NCBI GenBank assembly: GCA_035549255.1
Contig: DASZRD010000004.1
Location: 8,667-72,666 of the forward strand
Source of the DNA: Minisyncoccota bacterium
GTDB lineage: Bacteria > Patescibacteriota > Minisyncoccia > Phycocordibacterales > SBAW01
Length of the DNA: 64,000 nt
Direction: 5' to 3'
Shown here: positions 6,879-45,566 of the stretch, piece after piece
How positions within the stretch are numbered: the stretch's first letter is position 1
How the letters are laid out: the number at the start of each line of letters is the position of its first letter
Position numbers and translations under genes: made by a program
Notes under the pieces: generated by a model
The model's input: only the letters and a program-made list of their open reading frames with translations
The model's database searches: none
What the model was told of the DNA's origin: nothing

Positions 6879-8969
6879 CTATCGACCCATTTGGTAAAGC
6901 TGAGCCACCTCGCTCGCCGAGAGCGCGCGGTTGTAGATGCGGACGTCGTCTATAGAGCCCGGGAAGTAATTGCCCGCCCCGCAGCCGCTGGACCCCGCCT
7001 CGGAGCCGATGCAGTCGCGTATGGCGCTGGTGTAGCGGATAGCACCGCTCGGGCTGGTGTTGTCCGAGACGTCGACGCCGTTGACATAGAGCCGGAGGGT
7101 CTCGCCGTCGTAGGTAGCCATGGCGTAGTACCAGGTATTCTGCGCGATATTGGTATCGGTTACATAATAGTAGGTGCCGCCGATGTTGACCGTGGCATCG
7201 AGCCCCGTGACGGTGTCATTGAAGGCGAGGCTGTAGCCGCCCGACTCGGTCTTGGAGAGAATGCGGGTGTTGGTGGTTGTGCTGGTAGCCCTAAACCACG
7301 CGCCAAAGGAGATGGTAGTGGGCTCGAGCGTGACGCTGCGCGGTATCGAGATATATGAGGCACTGCCGTCAAATTTGAGCGCCTGGCCGACCTTCCCTGC
7401 CACGGGCGCGGTGGTCGTGCCCAAGCTCACGAGCGTGCCGGTGTTGCCCGTGCCGCTCATATCGGCGATCGTATTTGAGCGCCAGTTGATGGTCGAGCCG
7501 TCCATAGTCCAATAGCCGACCAGGCCGGAGTTGATATTCCCTGCATTAGTCGTAGGCCCCGGCGAGTGTGCGATATTGGTCTGACCGAGACGATAGAGCT
7601 GGGACACCTCGCTAGCGGAGAGAGCGCGGTTGTAGACGCGGATATCATCGAGATAGCCCGAGAACCAGTCGCCCGAATTCCCGCCCACGAAGGCGACCGG
7701 ACACCCGTAGGTTTTTGAAATGGTTCCCACAGCCGCGCCGTTGGCATAGAGCGTCGCGGTACCGGTGTTGTTGACGAAGACGAGATACGTCCAGGCGTTC
7801 TGCGGCACGGTATAGGAGGGCGAAAAGGTGTCGTCCGAGACACCGTACGCCGTCTCGCCGGCTATGGTATTGCCCACCTGCTGCACGCGCAAACTGTATT
7901 GGCCGCTATCCATCATCGGGTAGCCGTGCGACTGGCTGGCGCTGTTGCGCAAGTTTACCCAGCCGGTAACCGTGCATGGTGCGGAGACATTTGAGCCCGA
8001 TGTGGGGATATACGCTCCCGATGCAAGCGAGAGCGCCTGACCTATCTTCCCTGCCACGGCAGTTATGGCACCGCTCACAGAGGTAAGCGTGCCGGTGATG
8101 CTGCCGACGATATCCTGCGTCGTCGGGCCCGCCCAATTAGTGGTGTTGCCGTCCATAGGCCAATAGTCAACCAGGCCCTTAGAGAGCGGTGCGGCGCTCG
8201 AGTGGCCGAGGGTGGCTCTCTGACTCTGTAGGGAGCTGATGTCGCTTTGGGTAAGCGCGCGATTATATCCCTTGAGGTCGTCTATCTGGCCGTTGAAATA
8301 GTTCGCAAGATCGCTGCAGTGGCCCGAAGCGCTGGTGAAGCTGCAGCCCTGCTGCGGGTAGCCCGCGAGAAAGTAAATGTCGTCGGGCGGCGCCCACGCG
8401 CCGCTTTGTGTGCCCTGGAGCACTCCGTCAACATAGAGCGACTGCGTCTGCGCTATGCCGTCGTAATAGAGGACGACGTTGTACCATTGCCCCGCGTTGA
8501 TAGGAGAAGAAGCGATGTCGCCGATGTTCCAGAAGCCGGCATAAAATGCGCCGTTGTAGATGCCGACGAGCGTATAGTGGTAGCCCGAGCTCGGCGCGCC
8601 ATCGCCTTCTTCGGTGAGGACACTCTGCTCGGTGGCCACGTCATTAGCCTTTACCCACATCGAGAGCGAGACGGAGGTCGGGAGCGAGCCGATGAGGCCC
8701 CAGGCGTATTGATTGGTACCATCAAGCGTGAGCGCCTGGCCATTGTGGCCGGCGGCGACGGATGCGCCATTGACGAGCGTGAGATTGTGCCCGTTGCCCG
8801 AGAGGTCGGAGACCGTGTTGCCGCTGACCGTACTGGAATCGAAGGACCAGTACGCGGTCACGCCCAGCTGATTAGCCGGCACCGAGATCGTGCTGATCCG
8901 CGCTGCGGCGTCAGCCGTAAGCGGCAGGAAAAACAGCGCGGCAAAGAGCATGTAGAAAGTCTTTTTCAT
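6879..8969 (-). CDS. Secreted LamG-domain (concanavalin A-like lectin/glucanase) repeat protein, 3 modules
   Basis: Signal peptide MKKTFYMLFAALFFLPLTADA. Three modules each end in the motif DD(I/V)R(V/I)YNRALSASEV(S/A)QLY, characteristic of Laminin_G_3 repeats. Confidence 0.75.
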   Translation of the reverse strand: MKKTFYMLFAALFFLPLTADAAARISTISVPANQLGVTAYWSFDSSTVSGNTVSDLSGNGHNLTLVNGASVAAGHNGQALTLDGTNQYAWGLIGSLPTSVSLSMWVKANDVATEQSVLTEEGDGAPSSGYHYTLVGIYNGAFYAGFWNIGDIASSPINAGQWYNVVLYYDGIAQTQSLYVDGVLQGTQSGAWAPPDDIYFLAGYPQQGCSFTSASGHCSDLANYFNGQIDDLKGYNRALTQSDISSLQSQRATLGHSSAAPLSKGLVDYWPMDGNTTNWAGPTTQDIVGSITGTLTSVSGAITAVAGKIGQALSLASGAYIPTSGSNVSAPCTVTGWVNLRNSASQSHGYPMMDSGQYSLRVQQVGNTIAGETAYGVSDDTFSPSYTVPQNAWTYLVFVNNTGTATLYANGAAVGTISKTYGCPVAFVGGNSGDWFSGYLDDIRVYNRALSASEVSQLYRLGQTNIAHSPGPTTNAGNINSGLVGYWTMDGSTINWRSNTIADMSGTGNTGTLVSLGTTTAPVAGKVGQALKFDGSASYISIPRSVTLEPTTISFGAWFRATSTTTNTRILSKTESGGYSLAFNDTVTGLDATVNIGGTYYYVTDTNIAQNTWYYAMATYDGETLRLYVNGVDVSDNTSPSGAIRYTSAIRDCIGSEAGSSGCGAGNYFPGSIDDVRIYNRALSASEVAQLYQMGR

Positions 8970-11092
8970 TTGCCGAGATTGTAGAGCTGCTTCGCTTCGT
9001 TTGCGGAGAGAGCGCGGTTGTAGACGCGTATCTCGTCGATATCACCTGCAAAGGGCGACGAGGGGGAGCTAATGAGCTCGTAGCCGTCGGTCCAGAGGTC
9101 CATGCTGCCAATACTCGAGAACCAGTTCGATGTCGATGAGCTCCCGCTCGTATAGCCCAGCCCCACGGCGGAGCCGTCGATATAGAGCGTATTGCCTAAA
9201 GAATTGACGGTGAAGGTCAGCTGATGCCACTTGGTGTCGTAGGCCAGGGTCGCCGTGGCCCGATAGAAGTCGCTTGAGCCCTTGAGCAAGAGAGAGATGG
9301 TGCCGCCAGCAGTGTAGAGCAGGCGGAAGATGTTGTTGTTGGTGCCCGACTGGCCGAGGTAAATGAGCGAGCCGTTAGTGTCGGCCGTGCGGCGGAACCA
9401 CACGCTCACACTCCCCTGAGTGTTGCCGGAAATCGCGGAGACGACCGAGGTATTGCGGATATAATCGCCCATGCCGTTGAAGTGAAGCGCCTGGCCGAGC
9501 TTGCCCGCGACCTTCATCGAGCTAGTCGCCACCGAGCCGTCGGCGTAGCCATTGTAGCCGCCGATCCTGTCATAAATTTTATCGGTCACATCGATGCCGT
9601 TGAGGCTCCAGTATGCCACGAGCCCGCTCGCGAGCGAAGAATTGTCGGAGAGGGTGATTGCGTTCGCGACTTTAGCCGCGCCTTCTTGATAGAGCTGTTT
9701 TACTTCGCCTGCCGAAAGCGCGCGGTTGTAGACCCGTACGTCGTCGATAGGACCCTTGAAAAAGTTGCCCGGCGAGTTTGACACATACTCGGAGCCGATG
9801 AGCACATTGGTCGTGGGGGTAGGCGTGCTGCAGGCATCGACCGTCGAAGTATCGAGCGTGCCGTTGATATAGAGATACTTCGTGGTCCCATCGAAGACGC
9901 CGACGACGTGATACCACGCACCGGGAGAGAGTACCGCATTGGACGTGAGAGTAAACGAGCCACAATCGCGCTGCAATTGAAGGTGGTTCGTCGATGAGAG
10001 GTTCAAGATCCACTGACCCGTAACGCCCGAATTAAACTTGGATACGATGGTTTGCGCTCCGGTAGCCGTGGTCTTTACCCACGCGCTTACGGCGAACGGC
10101 GCAGTGCCGGAAAAGCTCAGTATATTGCCGAGGTTGACATATGAGCTGCCGCTTAACGAAAGCGCCTGCCCCAGTTTTCCCTGCACGAGCATCGAACTAG
10201 TCGCAACCCCTCCACCGACGTAGCCGTTATTCCCCTGCCCGCTACTGTCCTGGATGGTGGTGCCTATGGTCGAACCGTCAAAGGTCCACCAGCCGACCAG
10301 GCCGTTTTTTAAGGTCGAGCCGCCCGCGAGCGTGCCCGCCGAGGTGTTGTACTTTACGCTCGTGGCGTTGTAGAAGTTGGCTACCTCGCCTGCCGAAAGC
10401 GCGCGATTGTAGATGCGGATGTCGTCGAGCGAGCCGTTATAGTAGGCACCCCACGTTTGTGCGTAGCCTATATAAAACGGTGCTGCACCGATGATGTTGG
10501 CGGTATCAGTACTGCTGCTATCGAGTACGCCGTTAACATACCAATAGATGGTCCCGCCGGTGCGCACAAACGTGGCCAGCGTCCACACTCCTGTCGGAAT
10601 CGTGGCAGTAGTAAGGAAATTGTGCTGTTGCGTAAGTCGCACATCAAGGTGTCCCGGATGACCAGAGTCTTGGTATATCTGCCACCCATTGTCCGAGTCA
10701 CTCGATTTTTGGCCTATGAGCCCGATTGTTGCGCCGGTGCCCCATGGCGAAGAAGGTTTGATCCAAAACGAGACGGAAAAATCTCCCGTACCAAAATTAT
10801 AGGCAGAAGTAAATCCGCGGCTCGCGACCTGAATGGAAGAGCTGTTAAACGATAGTGAGGAACCAATCTTGCCGGGAGTCCATGTTGGAGAGTTGTAGAG
10901 ATCAAGATTGTAGCCGTTTCCGCTGTAGTCGCGTGCCGTGGCACCGCTTCCTTCGTCAAACTTCCAATAACTCAAGAGACCGAAATTGTTGGCGGGCGTG
11001 ATGATCGCAGCCTGCGCAGCATTCGCCCATGCAAAGGCGACGTAGACGATAATACTCGCGAGGATAATCTTATGTTTTAGCGAAATTGCCAT
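8966..11092 (-). CDS. Secreted LamG-domain repeat protein, 4 modules
   Basis: Start placed at MAISLKHKIILASIIVYVAFAWANAAQA (signal peptide). Four modules end in IDD(I/V)R(I/V)YNRALSAGEV..LY. The stop overlaps the downstream LamG gene by 4 nt. Confidence 0.75.
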   Translation of the reverse strand: MAISLKHKIILASIIVYVAFAWANAAQAAIITPANNFGLLSYWKFDEGSGATARDYSGNGYNLDLYNSPTWTPGKIGSSLSFNSSSIQVASRGFTSAYNFGTGDFSVSFWIKPSSPWGTGATIGLIGQKSSDSDNGWQIYQDSGHPGHLDVRLTQQHNFLTTATIPTGVWTLATFVRTGGTIYWYVNGVLDSSSTDTANIIGAAPFYIGYAQTWGAYYNGSLDDIRIYNRALSAGEVANFYNATSVKYNTSAGTLAGGSTLKNGLVGWWTFDGSTIGTTIQDSSGQGNNGYVGGGVATSSMLVQGKLGQALSLSGSSYVNLGNILSFSGTAPFAVSAWVKTTATGAQTIVSKFNSGVTGQWILNLSSTNHLQLQRDCGSFTLTSNAVLSPGAWYHVVGVFDGTTKYLYINGTLDTSTVDACSTPTPTTNVLIGSEYVSNSPGNFFKGPIDDVRVYNRALSAGEVKQLYQEGAAKVANAITLSDNSSLASGLVAYWSLNGIDVTDKIYDRIGGYNGYADGSVATSSMKVAGKLGQALHFNGMGDYIRNTSVVSAISGNTQGSVSVWFRRTADTNGSLIYLGQSGTNNNIFRLLYTAGGTISLLLKGSSDFYRATATLAYDTKWHQLTFTVNSLGNTLYIDGSAVGLGYTSGSSSTSNWFSSIGSMDLWTDGYELISSPSSPFAGDIDEIRVYNRALSANEAKQLYNLGK

Positions 11093-11652
11093 GTTTGGAA
11101 TATCTGCCGCAGGAGGTCGTCCAGTCGCGCATAGGTCGAGATCTGGTAGAGGTTGCCGCGGAAGACAAACCATACTTCGCGCGAGTCGCCGCCGAAGGCA
11201 TCGTTGTTGCTCTTGAAAGCGAGCCCCGTGTAATGTTCGCCGACCTCGACCGGCTGCGGGTCGAGGATCTCGAGGTCGGGCACGTCTTGGTGGATGCGGT
11301 CGGCCGTGAGCGTGTAGCTCCCTGTTGTATCCTCATCGAAGGGCGATACCGCTATCTGGATGCCGTTATCGTTCTGGTCTTGGAGCACGATAGTCTCAGG
11401 CGTGCCATCCGGGTCGCCGGGGATATCCTGCGCGGTGAAGTCGGCAGGCATTTTGAGCGAGAAGTTGTAGATAGAGTTGTCGTACTCTTTGGTGAGCGCG
11501 GGCACGACGTAGGGCGGCTGCGATGGTTGATCGCTAGAAGGAGCCCAGGATGCGGGGACCAATTTTGTCGCACCATATGCGGCAAAGCCCAAGAGTATGA
11601 GCGCTATTGCGACTAGAAAGATGGTCCGCTTTTTTCTAAATGGGTACATCAT
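11077..11652 (-). CDS. Membrane-anchored hypothetical protein (191 aa, N-terminal TM, extracytoplasmic domain)
   Basis: ORF tightly packed between the giant fibre gene and the LamG gene, with TM segment IFLVAIALILLGFAAYGA. Confidence 0.5.
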   Translation of the reverse strand: MMYPFRKKRTIFLVAIALILLGFAAYGATKLVPASWAPSSDQPSQPPYVVPALTKEYDNSIYNFSLKMPADFTAQDIPGDPDGTPETIVLQDQNDNGIQIAVSPFDEDTTGSYTLTADRIHQDVPDLEILDPQPVEVGEHYTGLAFKSNNDAFGGDSREVWFVFRGNLYQISTYARLDDLLRQIFQTWQFR

Positions 11653-11671
11653 TGTCTGTAAACGATAGCGA

Positions 11672-14600
11672 TTAATTTTGCGGAGTTGAGGAAGCGTCCG
11701 ACGAGTCGCTCGGTGCAGGGTCGCTTACGGGCGGCGTTGACGATGCGTCGGTGTCGGGCGCGGGCGGTGTCTCTACGGTGAGTGGCGTAGAGCTTGCGGT
11801 GTCGTCGCTTGAAGTAGGTGGAGTCGAGGTCGCATCATCGCTGGACGCCGTAGGCGTTGATGTCGCGTCGTCGGAAGGCGTAGGCGCAGGAGACGGGGTA
11901 CCCGCGCTCCCCTGCCCGCTTGCATTGACCATCGCAAGGAACTGCGCCTGCGTCACGCACACGCTACCAACGCACAGCTTGTCGGTGTCGACCTCCTTGG
12001 CGTGGAAGATCGTCGCGTAGAGGTCGTGGATGCCATTCTGCGCATCGCCGAGCCATGCGATGAGCGTCGCTTTGAAGTTGTCACCGAGGTTGGCTATCTG
12101 CTGTATGGCCGCGGCAAGATACGGCGTGAAGCCCGCGTAATTGAGCGTAAGGTAGCCGCTGGCGGTGTCGGTCGCTACAAGGTCGGGGAAGACTTTCTGA
12201 ACATCCTGCGCGATGAAGCCGCTATGCTCCGGCGTGCCGGTGGCCTCGGTGAGCCAGTTGTAGAAGACCGGATCGAGTGCCATTACCAAGGCGAGCGATG
12301 AAGAGGCATTGATCGACGTGATGTTGGTCTTGAGGCGCTCGTCGGAGGAGCAGCCAACCGAGCCGGATGTTGGGTTGATGGTGCACGAGCCGGTGCCGTT
12401 GGTGAAGCGCGCGACGATAGCGCCGGTCGTCGAGGTGGCGACATCGAGGAGGTACGCGGGCGCCTGGGTCCCGATACCGACGCCGAGATTATTGATATTA
12501 CCCGTGCCATCGGCCGTGCCGTAGATCGTGAGCACCGGCGATCCACCCACGTTTGCCGTGTAGCTTTCGACCGTGCCGGCCGATGCGGAAGAATCGACGG
12601 GGAGATCGGCCCAGCTTACGATGCCCGCGTCGGTGTCGAAGTTGAGCGAGCCGATCGCGAGGTTGTTGATTGATGTAATGCCGCTGTTGAGGTTGTAGAC
12701 CAGATTGCCATTGCCGACATTCAATCCCCCGGAGATAGTCGAGGTTGCGGTAGTAGAAGTGGCGTTAATGGTAGCGCCGACAATATCGCCAGCTACTGAA
12801 AGTCTTGCATAGGGAGAGGTAGTGCCAATGCCTAGGTTGCCGGTTGCTAAAAGATTAACAAGCTGATCGTTGGAATAGAAGCCCCACGTGAGCGCGTTAC
12901 TTGATGAGCCGCTTGAGGAATATTTGAAGCCCATATAGCCGCTGTTGTTAAGTGCCGCATTCACTCCGGTAAGCTGCGTCAACAGGATATGGCCGGTCGT
13001 GAGATTCGGTGCAAGCACTACTCCGCCCCATACATACGTCGTGTCATTGGTAAGAGTCATGTTGAGGAGTCCGGGTCCGACGCTTGCATTGCCCGAACTT
13101 CCGCTTATCGAGAGCGACGCGATGGGACTCGTCGTGCCGATGCCAACATTGCTGCCAAAGTACGCAGTACCTGTCGTTGTGGCACCGCCTGAAATAGTGA
13201 GGCCGCCCTGCTGCGTGCCATCGCCTATCGTCGTTGAGGCATAGAGGTTAAGCGATCCGCCGCCGGCCGCGAGACAGGTGCCATTTATCGCATAACAGCC
13301 GCTCGTGATGTTGATGCCGTTGGCGACGGTGGCTGAACCAGTTTGATCTATCGAGAAGAGCGACGAGCCGCTCGTCGAGGCGATGGTGAACGGATTATAG
13401 CCCGCGGTGCCGAGTATGCTAAGCGATGCTGCAGGCGACGTCGTGCCGATGCCGACGCGGAGGTTCTGCACTCCGCCAGTGCCATTGCTCTCGCCGTAGA
13501 CGGTGAGCACCGACGTGTCGCCGATATTGATCGATTGCGATTGTATGACGCCTGCCGCGGCGCCGCTGTCGACCGGAATGTTAGAGAGTGCCACCACGCC
13601 CGCGTCGGTGTCGAAGGAGAGATTGCCTATCGAGAGGTTGCTGATGGTCGTCGTGCCGCTTGAGGAGTCAACGGTGAAGGCGTTGGAGCCGTTGGCGCCG
13701 ACGGAGAAGACGCCGCTGTTTGAGACCGTGAGAATGGAAGTCGAGGCAGAGTTGGCAACCTCGAGCGCGTTGCCCGCAGTCGATGAGCCGCCCCATACCG
13801 TGAGCTTGGCATAGGGCGAAGAGGTACCAACACCTACATTGCCGGACGACTTGATAACGAATTGCGGATTGATCGAATTATCTTCAACCGAGAGATAATC
13901 CCCCGAGCCGGTGCCATTCTTGCGCACGATCAATCCCGTCGAGTTATTGAAATTATTGAATACGTTCACTCCTGCCTGTCCGCTAGCCGCCGTAAGAACC
14001 GAGTTAGAGTTGCTGAGATATAATGCCGATGTCCCCGACAATTGAAGGGTCCCGTTCGCGGAGAAAAAGCTGCTAATGCTCGCCGAAGGCAGCCTACCGA
14101 TCCCCACGTTGCCCAGGGTATCGATCGTAAAGAGCGTCTTAGTGGAAGAGCCGATCACGAATGCAGGGCCCGAGATGCCGTTGGGGTTTACCGAGAGCTG
14201 CGCCCACGGCGAGGTGGTGCCGATGCCGAAGCTGCCGTCGGCGGTGAGGCGAGCCTTCTCCGTATTATTGGTGAAGAATCCTATCGGATGATTTGAGAAG
14301 TTGCCGATATAGAAGCCTGGCGTGCCCAAGGGGCCGGTGCCGAGGCCGTCGGCATAGAATTGCGAGGCGACTGCTTGGTTATCCGCATAGAGGATCGCCC
14401 CCGCGTAGGACTGGCCGCTCGTGTTGGTATTCGAGAGCGTATAGCGCACGCCGCGCGAATTGTTAACGCTCTTCTGAGCGAAAAGGGTTTCAAGAGGATC
14501 ATATCCGCCGATATCTATGTTGCCGCCGAAGTATGCGTTCCCGGTCGTTGTGGCGCCGCCGCTTATCGTGAGGCCGCCCGCCGGCGCGCCGTCGCCAATA

Positions 14601-16480
14601 GTGGTCGAGGCGTAAAGATTGACTGAGCCTCCGCCGCCAATGATCCCAAGGCTCGATGTGGAAACGTTGACCCACTTGCTGCCGTCGTATTGGAGCAGGT
14701 CGCCCCATGCGGGCGAAGAGGCATCGACATCGGTGAGCGCGGAGAGTGCCGAAGCGCCGCCAGTGCTTGAGCCGTTGAAGGTGGAGTTGGTGATAGTCGC
14801 ATTAGTGATCGTGACGCCGCTCAAATTGCTCACAATCTGGCTGAGCGCCACGTTGTTGGTGTAGCCGCCGGTCGAGTATTGCCCGTAATCTATCGTGCTC
14901 CCCTGCGGCTGCACCGAGCCCGCATTCTGGTAGATCAGGCTGCGGAGGTTGTTGTTCAATTGGCTCAGCTGGTCGGCAAGCGAAGATTGCGTAACGTAGT
15001 TGGAAGCGAGGAATTGTGTGGAGGGCGCCGGCACAATAGCTGCCGGAGCGGATTGCACGGGCTGCGCATTCTTTATTGCCGGAGAATGAGCATCTTCGCC
15101 TTGCGACAGGGCAGCCATGTCTGCGCCCGGAGCGCTTTGGACAGGCACAACAACGGTCGTAGTGGGGTTGCCTTGAGGCGCTATGGCAAGATCCGGCTGA
15201 GCGGGAGCAAAGATGCTGTTCCACCAATCGCCCACTGCGTTCCAAACCGATGCCGTGTTGCCCTGTGCAATCGCGATACGTGGCAGGGACATATGCGAAG
15301 GAACGTCGCTTACATATGCGAGCGACGCTGCGGCAGCATCGGATGCGTTTTGCGCGACCGAGAGGCTTCCCTCAAGCCAGAAGCCGAGCGCCGCTGCGCC
15401 GGCGTTTACTTGCGTCGTAACGCCGTCGGCAAGCGTTTGATACATATGCGCTTGCGCATCGCCCATCGCATCGGCCCACGCAACGAACGCATTGCCGATG
15501 TTGTAATACAGGGCCGCTTGGGTGTCGGCCATCGCGTTGCCTGCCGATTGCAAGGCGTAGTACGTACCGGCAGTCTCCTGCACCATGGCGCTCGTCATAT
15601 CGCGCATGAACGCAAGCGGGACCGAGGCGATACTGCGTGCGAGCGGCCGCGCGCCGTCATTCCAAAAGGCTACCGCGCGCGCAGAGCTTTGCAGGTCGGT
15701 CGTCACCGCGTCGCCGAGCGCCGCGTAGATGCCTGCCTGCGCGTCGCTCATGTCGTCGGCCCAATCGACGAAGTTCCGAGTGAATGAAAATTCAATCTCA
15801 GTCTGCGCGGCAAGCGCGACATTCACAGCGTTAGTGATCAAGCCATAGCCAACAGATGCCGCTTGCGTATCGAGGGCGACGCGATCCTGAATATTCCTAG
15901 ACAGGGCGAGCGGGACTGCGGCAACTAAGTTCGCCCCGCTTGCAAAATTCTCAAGGGTCAGGGTTTGAGACATGTCGGCACGCGCCGCGGCAAGCACCGC
16001 AGCGGCATTATCGCGCGGCAGCGGGGCAGCAGCCATCAGAGGCACGACTTCGATGCTCTTATACGACGCCGGCTGTCGATACGCATCGGCCAGCACTGAG
16101 AGCGGAAGTGATTGCGCAAACGAGAGCGCCCAGGCGCCTACGAAGATGATGAGCACCGCGAGCGGAGCGAGCGCGTTGTAGCGGAAGAACGGCGAGAAGT
16201 TGTTCGCCTGCTTTTTCTTTTTTGGCTTGCGCTCCGGCGCCACCGACTGATATTCACGCTTAAGGTCCTCGGAGAGCTGGGTCTTCCGGGCCTCCTTAAT
16301 ATTTTTCATCTCCCGAAGGTACTTCTCCAGAGACCACGCGCTCACGTACCACGTGCGGCCTCTGAGCTCCCCTTCCACTTTGCCGCGACGGCATAGCAGG
16401 GTTACGTAATCGCCGGTTACGCCGAAGAGCTTGGCCGCTTCGGCCGAGGGGATTTTATTCTTCTCAAAATCTTGTTCCAT
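11672..16480 (-). CDS. Giant (1602 aa) chimeric cell-surface fibre protein: N-terminal HTH (excisionase/HTH_17-like), one TM, tail-fibre-like repeat shaft, Peptidase S74 intramolecular chaperone domain, C-terminal Ser/Thr/Pro tandem repeats
   Basis: HTH region AEAAKLFGVTGDYVTLLCRRGKVEGELRGRTWYVSAWSLEKYL. TM segment FFRYNALAPLAVLIIFVGAWALSFA. At least 5 copies of G(N)(V/L)GIGTTSP.A.LS(V/I). S74-like SSDERLKTNITSI...GFIAQDVQKVFPDLV...AAIQQI. Confidence 0.8.
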   Translation of the reverse strand: MEQDFEKNKIPSAEAAKLFGVTGDYVTLLCRRGKVEGELRGRTWYVSAWSLEKYLREMKNIKEARKTQLSEDLKREYQSVAPERKPKKKKQANNFSPFFRYNALAPLAVLIIFVGAWALSFAQSLPLSVLADAYRQPASYKSIEVVPLMAAAPLPRDNAAAVLAAARADMSQTLTLENFASGANLVAAVPLALSRNIQDRVALDTQAASVGYGLITNAVNVALAAQTEIEFSFTRNFVDWADDMSDAQAGIYAALGDAVTTDLQSSARAVAFWNDGARPLARSIASVPLAFMRDMTSAMVQETAGTYYALQSAGNAMADTQAALYYNIGNAFVAWADAMGDAQAHMYQTLADGVTTQVNAGAAALGFWLEGSLSVAQNASDAAAASLAYVSDVPSHMSLPRIAIAQGNTASVWNAVGDWWNSIFAPAQPDLAIAPQGNPTTTVVVPVQSAPGADMAALSQGEDAHSPAIKNAQPVQSAPAAIVPAPSTQFLASNYVTQSSLADQLSQLNNNLRSLIYQNAGSVQPQGSTIDYGQYSTGGYTNNVALSQIVSNLSGVTITNATITNSTFNGSSTGGASALSALTDVDASSPAWGDLLQYDGSKWVNVSTSSLGIIGGGGSVNLYASTTIGDGAPAGGLTISGGATTTGNAYFGGNIDIGGYDPLETLFAQKSVNNSRGVRYTLSNTNTSGQSYAGAILYADNQAVASQFYADGLGTGPLGTPGFYIGNFSNHPIGFFTNNTEKARLTADGSFGIGTTSPWAQLSVNPNGISGPAFVIGSSTKTLFTIDTLGNVGIGRLPSASISSFFSANGTLQLSGTSALYLSNSNSVLTAASGQAGVNVFNNFNNSTGLIVRKNGTGSGDYLSVEDNSINPQFVIKSSGNVGVGTSSPYAKLTVWGGSSTAGNALEVANSASTSILTVSNSGVFSVGANGSNAFTVDSSSGTTTISNLSIGNLSFDTDAGVVALSNIPVDSGAAAGVIQSQSINIGDTSVLTVYGESNGTGGVQNLRVGIGTTSPAASLSILGTAGYNPFTIASTSGSSLFSIDQTGSATVANGINITSGCYAINGTCLAAGGGSLNLYASTTIGDGTQQGGLTISGGATTTGTAYFGSNVGIGTTSPIASLSISGSSGNASVGPGLLNMTLTNDTTYVWGGVVLAPNLTTGHILLTQLTGVNAALNNSGYMGFKYSSSGSSSNALTWGFYSNDQLVNLLATGNLGIGTTSPYARLSVAGDIVGATINATSTTATSTISGGLNVGNGNLVYNLNSGITSINNLAIGSLNFDTDAGIVSWADLPVDSSASAGTVESYTANVGGSPVLTIYGTADGTGNINNLGVGIGTQAPAYLLDVATSTTGAIVARFTNGTGSCTINPTSGSVGCSSDERLKTNITSINASSSLALVMALDPVFYNWLTEATGTPEHSGFIAQDVQKVFPDLVATDTASGYLTLNYAGFTPYLAAAIQQIANLGDNFKATLIAWLGDAQNGIHDLYATIFHAKEVDTDKLCVGSVCVTQAQFLAMVNASGQGSAGTPSPAPTPSDDATSTPTASSDDATSTPPTSSDDTASSTPLTVETPPAPDTDASSTPPVSDPAPSDSSDASSTPQN
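11675..11905 (-). repeat. In-frame tandem repeats (~33-nt units) encoding an SDDATSTP(T/P)(A/T)S low-complexity tail
   Basis: Protein tail PSDDATSTPTASSDDATSTPPTSSDDTASSTP... Direct DNA repeats are visible at about 11780..11890. Confidence 0.5.
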
Positions 16481-27369: not shown

Positions 27370-27945
27370 TTAAAATTGCACCTTGACCGGCTCGCGGACT
27401 GCCGCATCTGCGTCGTCAAGCGCGAAGTACTCCATAGGAGAGAAGTGGAACATGCCGGCGATGATGTTGCCCGGGAAGCGCTGCATGGCGGTCGTGAGGT
27501 CGCGGACGTTGCCGTTGTAGAAGCGGCGCGCGGCTTGGATCTTGTCCTCGGTGTCGGTGAGCTGCGACTGGAGCGCCAAGAAATTCTGGTTGGCTTTGAG
27601 GTCGGGGTACGCCTCGGCAACGGCGAAAAGGGATTTCAGCGCGCCACTGAGCATATTTTCTGCCTGACCCTTCTCTTCCGGGCCTTGCGCGCTTATCGCC
27701 GCCGCGCGCGCTTTGGTAACATTTTCAAAAGCCTGGCTCTCGTGCGTCGCGTAGCCCTTAACTGTTTCAACAAGATTGGGGATGAGGTCATAGCGGCGCT
27801 TGAGTTGTACATCAATATCTGCCCACGCTTCCTTGGAGCGCTGCATAAGGGTAACAAAGCGGTTGTAGGCGAAGACGACCCACAGCACGAGCACCACAAC
27901 GACTGCTAAAATAATATACAGGATTGTCATATAGCGATTATACAA
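27370..27945 (-). CDS. lemA: LemA family protein
   Basis: N-terminal TM and conserved FYNGNVRDLTTAMQRFPGNIIAGMFHF region. Confidence 0.8.
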   Translation of the reverse strand: MYNRYMTILYIILAVVVVLVLWVVFAYNRFVTLMQRSKEAWADIDVQLKRRYDLIPNLVETVKGYATHESQAFENVTKARAAAISAQGPEEKGQAENMLSGALKSLFAVAEAYPDLKANQNFLALQSQLTDTEDKIQAARRFYNGNVRDLTTAMQRFPGNIIAGMFHFSPMEYFALDDADAAVREPVKVQF

Positions 27946-28018
27946 CTTTTATACAGATTGCAAGGGGTTTCGAGGCAGTGTAAGGTAAGTTTAGACACCG
28001 TCCACAAGGAGCTACGTC

Positions 28019-28342
28019 ATGTCTACGATCGAGAAAGAAGCCCGCGACAATGCGCTTGGGCCAGGCACGCTGAGATTTATCGACATGCTCACGAGCGATG
28101 TCGGCAAGCAGTTCCCATCGGTCTATTCAGACTCGGGAGATGCAGAGGGCAAAGGAAGGTTTATGCTCGGCAACTCGAGCACCACGCCGCCTATTACTCC
28201 GCTTGATAGCCTGCGCACGCTGCTCAAGGCCCTCACGAATGCGCCTGCCGCCGACCGTGCCGAGCTCGACCGAAAATTCGGAGCGCTGGCAGACAGCTTT
28301 GAGAGGAATATCCCCTTCTTCAAATCTCTCTCAGCCGCGTAA
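28019..28342 (+). CDS. Hypothetical protein (107 aa)
   Basis: AAGGAG RBS 7 nt upstream. Native-like GC. Followed by terminator repeat copy 1. Confidence 0.5.
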   Translation: MSTIEKEARDNALGPGTLRFIDMLTSDVGKQFPSVYSDSGDAEGKGRFMLGNSSTTPPITPLDSLRTLLKALTNAPAADRAELDRKFGALADSFERNIPFFKSLSAA

Positions 28343-28360
28343 AAGAATGGTTGTGCAATA

Positions 28361-28398
28361 AAAACCGCCCCGGAGATTTTCTCCGGGGCGATTGTTTT
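28361..28398. repeat. 38-bp repeat copy 1 containing a perfect terminator hairpin (aaaaccgccccggagattttctccggggcgattgtttt)
   Basis: Identical to 28921..28958. Confidence 0.75.
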
Positions 28399-28492
28399 AC
28401 TTTATAAAAATAAAAAGTTGTGGTATTTTCGCATTGGCTGTTCCCTAGCGAACAGCGTCACTAGGGGCTCCTAGAGCCTAAAGGAGGACGTT

Positions 28493-28912
28493 GTGAAAAT
28501 CAGTATCGACACTTGCTACTCGGAAGGGCAGTATCGTGACACGGGTGTTGAAGTGCCGGCACACGCTCTGTTGGGAGCGAGTACGTTAGCTGTCGCTATC
28601 GTCTCGGAGTTACGGGAAAATGACGTTGCAAAGTATGTCGAGGTCATCCGATTTCGATCAACCCACCGCACGCCGGATTGCGTCGTCTGCAAAGTTCATG
28701 GCGAACTAAATATTCTGGGGGTAAAGAAAACTTTGAGCCATGTCCTGACGATTGATCTTCCTGATCCGCCCAAGAAGTACAACACCACGATACTGCAGGA
28801 TGACGTGGCACGATTCATGGTTGGCATTCGATATGATCTTAGCTATACAGCCAGGGTCAATCGACAGGTCCTGGCCAACTTGGATAAGTTCTTAACGCCA
28901 TCTTCTGGTTAA
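28493..28912 (+). CDS. Hypothetical protein (139 aa), GTG start, within a low-GC islet
   Basis: Strong RBS aaggagga 5 nt upstream of the GTG. Noticeably lower GC than surrounding genes. No recognisable motifs. Confidence 0.5.
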   Translation: MKISIDTCYSEGQYRDTGVEVPAHALLGASTLAVAIVSELRENDVAKYVEVIRFRSTHRTPDCVVCKVHGELNILGVKKTLSHVLTIDLPDPPKKYNTTILQDDVARFMVGIRYDLSYTARVNRQVLANLDKFLTPSSG

Positions 28913-28920
28913 CCACTACG

Positions 28921-28958
28921 AAAACCGCCCCGGAGATTTTCTCCGGGGCGATTGTTTT
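28921..28958. repeat. 38-bp repeat copy 2 (identical terminator hairpin)
   Basis: Perfect direct repeat of 28361..28398. It serves as a convergent terminator for 28493..28912 (+) and 28958..29323 (-). Confidence 0.75.
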
Positions 28959-29323
28959 CATTTTTTTGTAGATCCAGGCTTATCCTTTCCGTCTTGTTTA
29001 GATTCCCCGTCACTCTTTGGTCCTTGCAAATCATTCTGGAAAGGACTGGGGATTCTTAGATCGAGCATAGCCGGTATCTCACCATTCTGTCTCTCATATT
29101 CGGAGATTTGGAAAGAGAGTAATTGAGACAATCTTTTGGTGTGATGAGGTGTCAACACATAACTTTCCGACATTTCTCCCTTATAAACGGTAAGTACGAA
29201 ATGACCTTCTCCAAATAATACTCTTACATTTTCGGAGAAAGATTTAGGTGTCTTTGCAATTCGTTGGATTTCTTGCTCATTCTGAATCTCTTGTTCCGTC
29301 TTTGCTTGTTCTTCTGGTGTCAT
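28958..29323 (-). CDS. Hypothetical protein (~122 aa from ATG; listed start 29341 is TTG), low-GC
   Basis: AT-rich ORF MTPEEQAKTEQEIQNEQEIQRIAK... with no recognisable motifs. Confidence 0.4.
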   Translation of the reverse strand: MTPEEQAKTEQEIQNEQEIQRIAKTPKSFSENVRVLFGEGHFVLTVYKGEMSESYVLTPHHTKRLSQLLSFQISEYERQNGEIPAMLDLRIPSPFQNDLQGPKSDGESKQDGKDKPGSTKK

Positions 29324-29342
29324 AAATTTTATGATATGCAAA

Positions 29343-29365
29343 ACCCCGCTCGCGCGGGGTTCTTT
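29343..29365 (-). terminator. groEL terminator hairpin (aaccccgc-gcga-gcggggtt)
   Basis: Perfect stem directly 3' of the groEL stop on the minus strand. Confidence 0.6.
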
Positions 29366-31436
<2,071 letters not shown>

Positions 31437-44894: not shown

Positions 44895-45566
44895 CTAGTC
44901 ATACACTACTTCAGTGATCTCGGCATGAGGATTGGGGATGACGCACAGCACCTTGCCGGCGATCTTGAAGTCCTCGCGCAGGACAATGGGCTTATACTTG
45001 GGATTCTTGGACTCTGGGTAAAGGACGGTAACGCCTTCGCGCCTCTCATAGCGCTTAACCGTCACCATGTCGCCAACGATTGCCGCCACGCGGTCGCCGT
45101 CCTGGGCCTCGCTGGTGAAGCGGATAAGCACGTAATCGCCCGGATGGATGCCCGCGTCCTCCATGCTGTCACCTACCGCGCGCACCGCCACGATGCTGCC
45201 TTCGTCGCCGCGAGGGCTTTCTGCCAGCGCCTTGTCTACTTCGAGAAATTCGTCCTGCTCCTCCTGCGCAAAGAGGGAAAGGTCGTCGCAGCCCACGTTG
45301 GCCACGACCGGCACGGAGACTGTTTCCTGAGTAGGCATGCCGTCGGCATCTGCGCCGCGCAACTCGATATTGCGGCGCGCGTGCTTGCGGCGCACGATGT
45401 AGCCCTTTTCCTCGAGCGCCTCAAGGTACTGCGTCACCGTGCGTAGGGAGCTTACCTTGAGAAGCTTCCGGAGCTCGTCGATGGTCGGCGGCTCGCGATG
45501 CTTGAGCATGTAGGCCTCGAGTGTATCGAGCACGCGCTGCTGTTTGATCGTGAGAGCCTGCTGCAT
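44895..45566 (-). CDS. lexA: LexA repressor (S24 peptidase)
   Basis: N-terminal wHTH (LTIKQQRVLDTLEAY...), cleavage site A-G (VANVGCDD region), and catalytic GDSM plus K (VKRY). Confidence 0.85.
   Translation of the reverse strand: MQQALTIKQQRVLDTLEAYMLKHREPPTIDELRKLLKVSSLRTVTQYLEALEEKGYIVRRKHARRNIELRGADADGMPTQETVSVPVVANVGCDDLSLFAQEEQDEFLEVDKALAESPRGDEGSIVAVRAVGDSMEDAGIHPGDYVLIRFTSEAQDGDRVAAIVGDMVTVKRYERREGVTVLYPESKNPKYKPIVLREDFKIAGKVLCVIPNPHAEITEVVYD

Follow-up and report, generated by a model that had tools for sequence, protein, structure and literature searches.

The groEL-lemA spacer and its insert

We analyzed a 64,000-nucleotide stretch of DNA from a Minisyncoccota bacterium (assembly GCA_035549255.1, contig DASZRD010000004.1, positions 8,667 to 72,666 of the forward strand), referred to here as the window. 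Our subject is the spacer between the chaperonin gene groEL and lemA, in which three small open reading frames (ORFs), ORF107, ORF A and ORF B, are arranged around two identical copies (T1 and T2) of a 38-bp repeat. A preliminary description of this DNA had placed a low-GC islet at 28361-29340, directly 3' of groEL. The position next to groEL held, whereas the span did not, as the true insert is larger and covers about 27969-29341. The features of the locus are the following, with Shine-Dalgarno motifs given as SD and G+C content at third codon positions as GC3.

27370-27930, minus strand: lemA, native flank (Pfam LemA, 1.7e-61)
27931-27968, minus strand: lemA promoter region, native, predicted from sequence (TTGCAA at 27958-27963, TATAAT at 27937-27942)
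27969-29341: lineage-specific insert of about 1.37 kb, between 'ggggtttt' (the tail of the groEL terminator) and 'cccTTGCAA', delimited by empty-site alignment
27981-27986, plus strand: -10-like TAAGGT, spaced 17 nt from the TTGCAA palindrome; candidate ORF107 promoter that would have the lemA -35 in common
28019-28342, plus strand: ORF107 (VG934_00525), 107 aa, with SD AAGGAG at 28006-28011; GC 0.571, GC3 0.67
28361-28398: repeat copy T1, 18 nt past the ORF107 stop; candidate bidirectional intrinsic terminator
28399-28492, plus strand: ORF A leader, with TTTATA at 28401-28406, 17 nt, TGG-TATTTT at 28424-28429, a hairpin and an SD
28493-28912, plus strand: ORF A (VG934_00530), 139 aa, GTG start; GC 0.495, GC3 0.54
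28921-28958: repeat copy T2, the same sequence as T1, located where ORF A and ORF B converge
28958-29323, minus strand: ORF B (VG934_00535), 121 aa, marginal member of the DUF3467 family; GC 0.399, GC3 0.34
29342-29361, minus strand: groEL terminator hairpin aaccccgcgcgagcggggtttt, native, -18 kcal/mol, kept in the nearest relative
29366-31024, minus strand: groEL, native flank
30032-30592, minus strand: low-GC putative recombination tract of about 550 bp in the middle third of groEL (codons ~145-327)

Loci of relatives were collected through a GroEL search and then fetched for comparison of gene order. We found that the groEL-lemA spacer, 1435 bp long in the window, measures 66-74 bp in the nearest relatives. 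In the closest of them (L038, GCA_035550415.1; GroEL 87% identical), where the gene order is SBP-SecG-groES-groEL-lemA-MazG-like-HtpX-YbjQ, the 66-bp gap consists of the groEL stop, aaccccgcgcaagcggggttttt, cgta and cccTTGCAAtctgtataaaagttgTATAATtaccgc, followed by the lemA ATG. A second relative (P0006 contig/L040; GroEL 81% identical) likewise has an empty site with terminator and promoter intact, and five more distant lineages have gaps of 18-69 bp. In all, groEL and lemA are directly adjacent (18-74 bp) in seven lineages (L038, P0006 contig/L040, L041, L043/L044, L047-L048, L052). The lemA promoter itself has a leaderless-style layout, with the palindromic hexamer TTGCAA, TATAAT, 6 nt and ATG, and the pattern cccTTGCAA...TATAAT is kept in L038, L043, L042 and L051.

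The same groEL terminator (29342-29361) and the same lemA promoter through its ATG (27968-27928) flank the three ORFs in the window. The window therefore keeps terminator and promoter about 1.37 kb apart, and what lies between them is the insert, with an uncertainty of about 6 nt at the lemA-side boundary. ORF107 is missing from all relatives and is thus part of this insert, rather than the host gene with a duplicated terminator that 28019-28342 had been taken for. The relatives do not carry the islet genes, as the earlier proposal of an inserted cassette had anticipated. We hold with high confidence that the region is an insertion specific to one soil Paceibacterota lineage of the Candidate Phyla Radiation (CPR). 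The ends of the insert show no terminal inverted repeats and no direct repeats or target-site duplication. In neither the annotated 20 kb at this locus nor 20 additional ORFs of the window did we detect an integrase or transposase family. A transposable element or miniature inverted-repeat transposable element was rejected on the grounds of these repeat-free ends and of the lack of any transposase family match.

As the source is a metagenome-assembled genome, we considered whether a mis-join or collapsed strain variants could have produced the repeat structure, such that T1, ORF A and T2 were never on one molecule. Short-k assembly does break at the repeat, as a Logan contig (run SRR12170510) terminates 30 nt into T2. 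However, the window matches a 179-kb contig of a second assembly (GCA_964442315.1) at 100% identity over 20,561 bp, both repeat copies included, so that no base differs across 20.6 kb between two assemblies deposited separately. Logan contigs are, we assume, built from 31-mers, and a break within T2 is then expected at a repeat; the break point thus matches the expectation for a genuine repeat in two contexts. Moreover, a 38-bp repeat is far below typical read length and should be resolvable. Because the second assembly is identical and the Logan break falls inside T2, an assembler artefact is unlikely, and we give this explanation next to no credence.

The 38-bp repeat and its predicted terminator function

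The 38-mer, AAAACCGCCCCGGAGATTTTCTCCGGGGCGATTGTTTT, occurs exactly twice in the window, with its copies 560 bp apart from start to start, in agreement with the preliminary description. No further copy was found in the window when 3 mismatches were allowed, nor did any appear in 100 shuffles. A whole-window repeat search recovered the same pair, with similarity reaching 43 nt with 2 mismatches. Both copies lie 0-18 nt past a stop codon; the ORF A stop is 8 nt upstream of T2, and the ORF B stop codon overlaps T2 by 1 nt.

Each copy consists of an 11-bp stem (CGCCCCGGAGA/TCTCCGGGGCG, nine G-C pairs) and a 3-nt loop, with an A-tract on the 5' side and a T-tract on the 3' side. In the extended hairpin, whose ends read AAAAC/GTTTT, a 3-nt bulge (ATT) is the single irregularity. 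RNA folding gave -25.3 (plus strand) and -28.2 (minus strand) kcal/mol for T1, with z of -5.3 and -5.9, and -28.0 and -29.8 kcal/mol for T2, with z of about -7; overall, free energy on either strand ranges from -24 to -30 kcal/mol and z, relative to shuffles, from -5.3 to -7.2. The U-tract directly follows the stem on the minus strand (GGCGG-UUUU(U)); on the plus strand it reads AUUGUUUU, with 6 U in 8 positions. The repeat thus combines a stable G+C-rich stem-loop, a 3' U-rich tract on both strands and a position after a stop codon, as intrinsic terminators do. Searches of Rfam returned only sub-threshold matches, each of which overlapped the hairpins; most were to small RNA or leader families. 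Because the hairpin is very stable and is followed by U-tracts on both strands, the 38-mer very likely acts as a bidirectional intrinsic (Rho-independent) terminator. Known bidirectional intrinsic terminators between convergent genes have the same G+C-rich perfect stem, short loop, upstream A-tract and downstream T-tract, and the position of the copies directly after stop codons, with T2 common to a convergent gene pair, fits this class as well. What sets the present case apart is the occurrence of two base-identical copies 560 bp from each other and the interrupted plus-strand U-tract.

The double presence of the 38-mer could also be incidental, if it were one of many genome-wide copies of a generic repeated terminator or of a dispersed element resembling repetitive extragenic palindromic (REP) sequences. 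Our search of the source genome was confined to the 64-kb window, and the stem is of a kind that arises readily, since 36 unrelated GTDB representative genomes (L001-L036), from Streptomyces to Alistipes, contain it once each in a terminator-like hairpin, as would be expected of an 'easy' terminator sequence. The flanks and loops differ among these 36 genomes, and their stems look like convergent generic terminators, not members of a family. The preliminary description had raised the prospect of finding the 38-mer at ordinary terminators, and none was found beyond the pair: the full 38-mer is absent from the GTDB representatives in a scan with the stem core (the source genome itself is apparently missing from that set), the flank-specific pattern gave zero matches in JGI metagenome contigs, the stem core gave zero matches in IMG/VR, and the best similarity to the 38-mer in the loci of relatives was 23/38. 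With just two copies in 64 kb, both within a 1.4-kb insert, a dispersed element is in our view unlikely. Dispersed palindromes of the REP type, or of the bacterial interspersed mosaic element (BIME) type, share with the 38-mer an intergenic, palindromic repeat downstream of genes, yet here there are two copies in one islet and none elsewhere in the 64 kb or the public collections searched.

Islet genes, foreign signals and the insertion site

ORF A begins with its GTG codon 4 nt behind the SD AAAGGAGGA (28480-28488), and the 139-aa frame, its start and its strong ribosome-binding site were all described correctly at the outset. An ORF of this length appears in 0.4% of shuffles of its segment. 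Because of this rate and of the near-consensus SD at ideal spacing, ORF A is probably a real gene. A promoter in its leader is something we only infer, as the promoter-like site scores below the threshold of the promoter scanner. Between that site and the SD, two adjacent 10-nt arms form an inverted repeat (28437-28456; GCTGTTCCCT/AGCGAACAGC) that could be a regulatory hairpin. The protein matched only itself, both among 5.8 billion protein clusters in a word-indexed search and among 1.84 billion representatives in an exhaustive phmmer search. It had no match in Pfam, PADLOC, PHROG, NCBIfam or PDB sequences, and an exact-protein look-up returned no record. When ORF A and ORF B were compared by tblastn with 50,697 phage records, nothing was found. 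A single-sequence AlphaFold2 (AF2) model of ORF A was uninformative, with a predicted local distance difference test score (pLDDT) of 38. By eye, we spotted the pattern H-x5-C-x2-C-x2-H at residues 57-69 (28661-28699; HRTPDCVVCKVH), a possible small metal-binding knuckle.

ORF107 is the only member of its 90% cluster and had no match in Pfam, PADLOC, PHROG or NCBIfam; a scan of JGI metagenome contigs likewise gave no relative. An ORF as long as this appears in 2.5% of shuffles. ORF107 and ORF A are lineage-restricted ORFans. The proteins of ORF107, ORF A and ORF B are mutually unrelated, and no paralogue of any islet ORF was found elsewhere in the window or in the loci of relatives. There is a faint resemblance between ORF107 and ORF B (GxGxFxL ... 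I/LTP ... K.L ..., 29% identity over 51 columns), a hint that ORF107 could be a degenerate DUF3467 protein. We rejected ORF107 as a diverged DUF3467 paralogue of ORF B, for the hhalign comparison was not significant (P 0.019, probability 2.4%). Matches of islet ORFs to YceI (E 0.045) and Hsp33 (E 0.019) were also discarded, being far below family cutoffs.

ORF B had been reported as a 122-aa convergent ORF; it is convergent with ORF A and encodes 121 aa. The statement that neither ORF A nor its neighbor has recognizable motifs is true of ORF A, which has no family match, and not of ORF B. Its residues 24-83 align with positions 23-90 (of 92) in the Pfam model PF11950 (DUF3467); the score of 25.9 bits narrowly exceeds the gathering cutoff of 25.0 (E value 1e-5), and the precomputed annotation gives the same family. 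Membership of ORF B in DUF3467 is thus marginal, and the protein differs from the family in having an additional tail, predicted to be disordered and rich in Lys and Asp. It is small and acidic, and searches of PDB sequences returned nothing, nor did PADLOC, PHROGs or NCBIfam return anything meaningful. An AF2 model (pLDDT 60.5) predicts a compact core of helices, three strands and a long helix, and a fold search with this model gave no match. The one homologue found, P0003 (L046), is 39% identical and lies on an 827-bp low-GC contig. It keeps the MTPEE N-terminus of ORF B, and the start of ORF B is therefore the ATG at 29323. It also keeps the motif IPSPFQNDLQ: residues 92-101 of ORF B (29021-29050) contain PSPFQNDLQ, preceded by I, invariant between the two proteins within the otherwise disordered tail, and this segment is a candidate short docking motif. 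ORF B has no SD; a TATCAT box (29331-29336) is followed by 7 nt and the ATG, as in a leaderless-style start. In the sole paper that we found on the family, a P. gingivalis DUF3467 protein increased about 5-fold after chlorhexidine, together with GroES (PMC11986949); we treat this joint increase as a lead, not as evidence. There is no CIRCE operator in the window, and we therefore make no link to HrcA.

The composition and the translation signals of the islet differ from those of its surroundings. Mean GC of the window is 0.583, and most of its longer ORFs (crude ORF call) have a GC3 of about 0.65-0.83. The markedly low GC ascribed at first to ORF A and ORF B is borne out by their values, and two of the three stretches below 48% GC in the window (400-bp windows) are 28601-29500 and 30001-30700. 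The repeat pair with ORF A belongs to one of the two stretches where GC is lowest. GC3 falls in steps from ORF107 through ORF A to ORF B, and native sequence stands at about 0.75 (0.72 in lemA and groES; 0.74-0.82 in the native parts of groEL). Among the 17 native genes annotated at the locus (17370-37930, our L045), 16 lack an SD motif. A -10-like box stands 6-8 nt ahead of the ATG in lemA, groES, YbjQ and HtpX, which suggests that these genes have leaderless mRNAs. ORF107 and ORF A, unlike these native neighbors, bear strong SDs.

The groEL gene next to the islet is itself mosaic. Its low-GC tract, on whose limits two independent change-point fits concur within 12 nt, has a GC3 of 0.30, compared with 0.82 and 0.74 on its two sides, and mismatches L038 at 36% of positions inside as opposed to 12-16% outside. 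The best match changes from L038 to the lower-GC L052 within the tract, and GroEL identity to the nearest relative P0005 across the three segments is 97.6/77.5/90.5%. The tract looks like the result of homologous exchange with an unsampled donor of roughly 40% GC. It is about 700 bp from ORF B and has a similar GC3 (0.30 and 0.34); the two may derive from one event, although the groEL 3' sequence and the terminator between them are native. We rejected a joint arrival of ORF B and groEL from a donor with a DUF3467 gene after groEL, because the homologue in L046 is not beside groEL and because groEL is native in its 3' third, as is its terminator. Together, the stepped GC3, the SDs that native neighbors lack and the low-GC tract in groEL support a foreign, layered origin of the islet. 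Like other horizontally acquired islets, it is absent from the syntenic site in close relatives and atypical in composition and signals, the latter only mildly for ORF107.

The groEL-lemA spacer is a recurrent insertion hot spot, since cargo unrelated to that of the window occupies it in two further lineages. L042 has a 192-aa ORF in this spacer and L050/L051 an ORF of 59-70 aa, each on the strand opposite to groEL and lemA, as are ORF107 and ORF A. These cargo proteins have no relationship to one another or to the window ORFs, and the insert DNAs share no similarity. All three occupied sites have a common arrangement (window 27958-28018; L042 8285-8342; L051 5924-5983), with TTGCAA, 17 nt, TAnnnT (TAAGGT, TATTTT and TATTTT), a ~30-nt untranslated region (UTR) with caC(A)AGGAG, and ATG. 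At the empty sites no -10-like hexamer stands at the 17-nt position. This is suggestive of a selection by expression, in which the insertions retained may be those that gained it through the -35 of lemA. The occupied sites of L042 and L051 do not contain the 38-mer repeat.

Origin of the islet and its alternatives

We consider it probable that the region is a composite accessory islet, horizontally acquired in at least two steps at an intergenic hot spot, with two-way terminators whose duplication would stem from recombination of the ORF A module. In this reading the islet comprises three independent single-gene modules: ORF107 with T1, ORF A with its promoter-like leader and T2, and ORF B, which would use T2 from the other side. 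T2 would end the transcription of both convergent genes, and T1 would block read-through from ORF107 into ORF A as well as antisense transcripts heading to lemA. The 38-mer would thereby keep the modules insulated against one another and shielded from lemA and from groESL read-through. The starting state may have been ORF107 and ORF B convergent on a single common terminator, into which the ORF A module (leader, ORF and terminator) would have recombined, leaving the exact duplication. This could have happened by Campbell-type integration of a terminator-bearing fragment or by import of the terminator-ORF A-terminator segment from a sibling strain. A 560-bp unit with 38-bp direct repeats is the expected product of a single crossover, and on this basis recombination at the terminator is a reasonable, if tentative, account of the duplication, which we would put slightly short of even. 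Of the earlier proposal that a cassette was inserted by recombination at a terminator, the lineage-specific insertion and the terminator-like repeat stand, while the recombination step is conjectural. That step and the acquisition order, like terminator activity and the promoter assignments, we infer from the sequence.

Several points weigh against the composite islet as we describe it. For a RecA-mediated crossover, a homology of 38 bp is short, and we saw neither a circular haplotype nor one that lacks ORF A. The proposed order of acquisition is derived solely from GC amelioration logic. ORF107, with its near-native GC and a shuffle rate of 2.5%, could be native-derived or not a gene. The plus-strand U-tract (AUUGUUUU) is interrupted, and the source-genome search spans 64 kb, which leaves room for a genome-wide hairpin family. 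Finally, the promoter and SD architecture is conserved among the three occupied sites, which could instead point to repeated losses of an old gene that evolves fast.

This last point is the core of an alternative in which one or more ancestral, fast-evolving genes divergent to lemA were precisely lost in most relatives. The common TTGCAA-17-TAnnnT, ~30-nt UTR, caC(A)AGGAG and ATG, always in one orientation, and the near-native GC of ORF107 would fit it. However, the cargo proteins are unrelated and the insert DNAs without similarity, the sites of the two closest relatives (87% and 81%) contain no cargo and keep their signals intact, so that several precise deletions would be needed, and the GC3 of ORF A and ORF B is strongly non-native. 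Repeated loss of an old gene is less likely than gain, and we regard it as improbable. The hairpin could, on a different view, be a recombination site (attC-like or structure-specific), with ORF107 and ORF A, each with its terminator, forming a two-cassette array captured by a site-specific recombinase. Two small ORFs on the same strand are each followed by the identical imperfect palindrome, the extended hairpin has its 3-nt bulge and AAAAC/GTTTT ends, and the locus is a recurrent landing pad. Yet the search of the surrounding 20 kb and of the 20 further window ORFs turned up no integrase or other recombinase, and the repeat ends (...AAAAAC and GTTTTAC/GTTTTCA) do not fit RYYYAAC/GTTRRRY. In addition, typical cassettes are promoterless, whereas ORF A seemingly brings a promoter and an SD of its own; further copies were not found in GTDB representatives, JGI metagenome contigs or IMG/VR, and the occupied sites of L042 and L051 are without such a repeat. 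Cassette capture of this kind is very unlikely. The attC sites of integrons are about 57-141 bp long, with R''/L''-L'/R' organization, GTTRRRY core sites and extrahelical bases, and the repeat here has 38 bp. The likeness to integron cassettes with attC lies in short same-strand ORFs with near-identical imperfect palindromes and a unit of ~0.5 kb; the differences are that there is no intI found near the locus, the repeat is too short and has no GTTRRRY/RYYYAAC, the leader and SD are the gene's own, and there are only two units.

The genes had also been proposed, speculatively, as a toxin-antitoxin or defense-type pair, and they are indeed small, lineage-specific and low in GC, and lie in a variable spot. 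None of the three ORFs matched a PADLOC family at E<=1 (0 families), and no toxin-antitoxin or anti-phage defense family was matched in Pfam, NCBIfam or PHROGs. Moreover, ORF A and ORF B are convergent with a strong predicted terminator between them, ORF107 and ORF A are parted by a terminator and a promoter-like leader and so do not form a bicistronic operon, and the differing compositions of the modules argue against co-inheritance as one system. This proposal found no support in the comparison, and its probability is very small indeed. A bolder extension of our own reading is that the spacer serves as a landing pad where single-gene modules, each made up of a -10, an ORF led by an SD and a terminator hairpin of its own, would be captured without a dedicated recombinase. 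The -10 would dock 17 nt from the palindromic -35 of lemA, and modules would stack by recombination within the terminator hairpin. Such a system, a counterpart of cassette capture that needs no integrase, would keep bringing in ORFan genes. We think this a long shot.

The composite islet can be set beside known strain-specific islets at intergenic hot spots and mosaic genes, with which it shares conserved flanks, variable cargo, atypical composition and a foreign tract in the adjoining housekeeping gene. Here, in contrast, the islet has a mere 1.4 kb, with no tRNA, integrase or direct repeats at its ends, and the host is a CPR bacterium. Mosaic pbp genes in naturally transformable bacteria are an example of recombination with foreign DNA.

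Two further observations concern other parts of the window. On the minus strand at 6879-16480, three adjacent and very large ORFs (696, 735 and 1602 aa) contain internal repeat units of ~93-130 nt at spacings of about 650-1390 bp, and they probably encode repeat-domain surface proteins. At 44895-45566, also on the minus strand, this small CPR genome encodes a LexA-type repressor (Peptidase_S24 with a LexA DNA-binding domain).

The architecture needs no new mechanism and is that of an ordinary accessory islet. It is a clean example of gene uptake in a very small, synteny-conserved CPR genome, and its setting stands out through base-precise boundaries, a mosaic chaperonin gene beside it and a spacer that at least two other lineages have used independently. 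If the promoter geometry and terminator-mediated stacking prove general, they would offer uncultivated Patescibacteria a simple route to gain and express ORFan genes.

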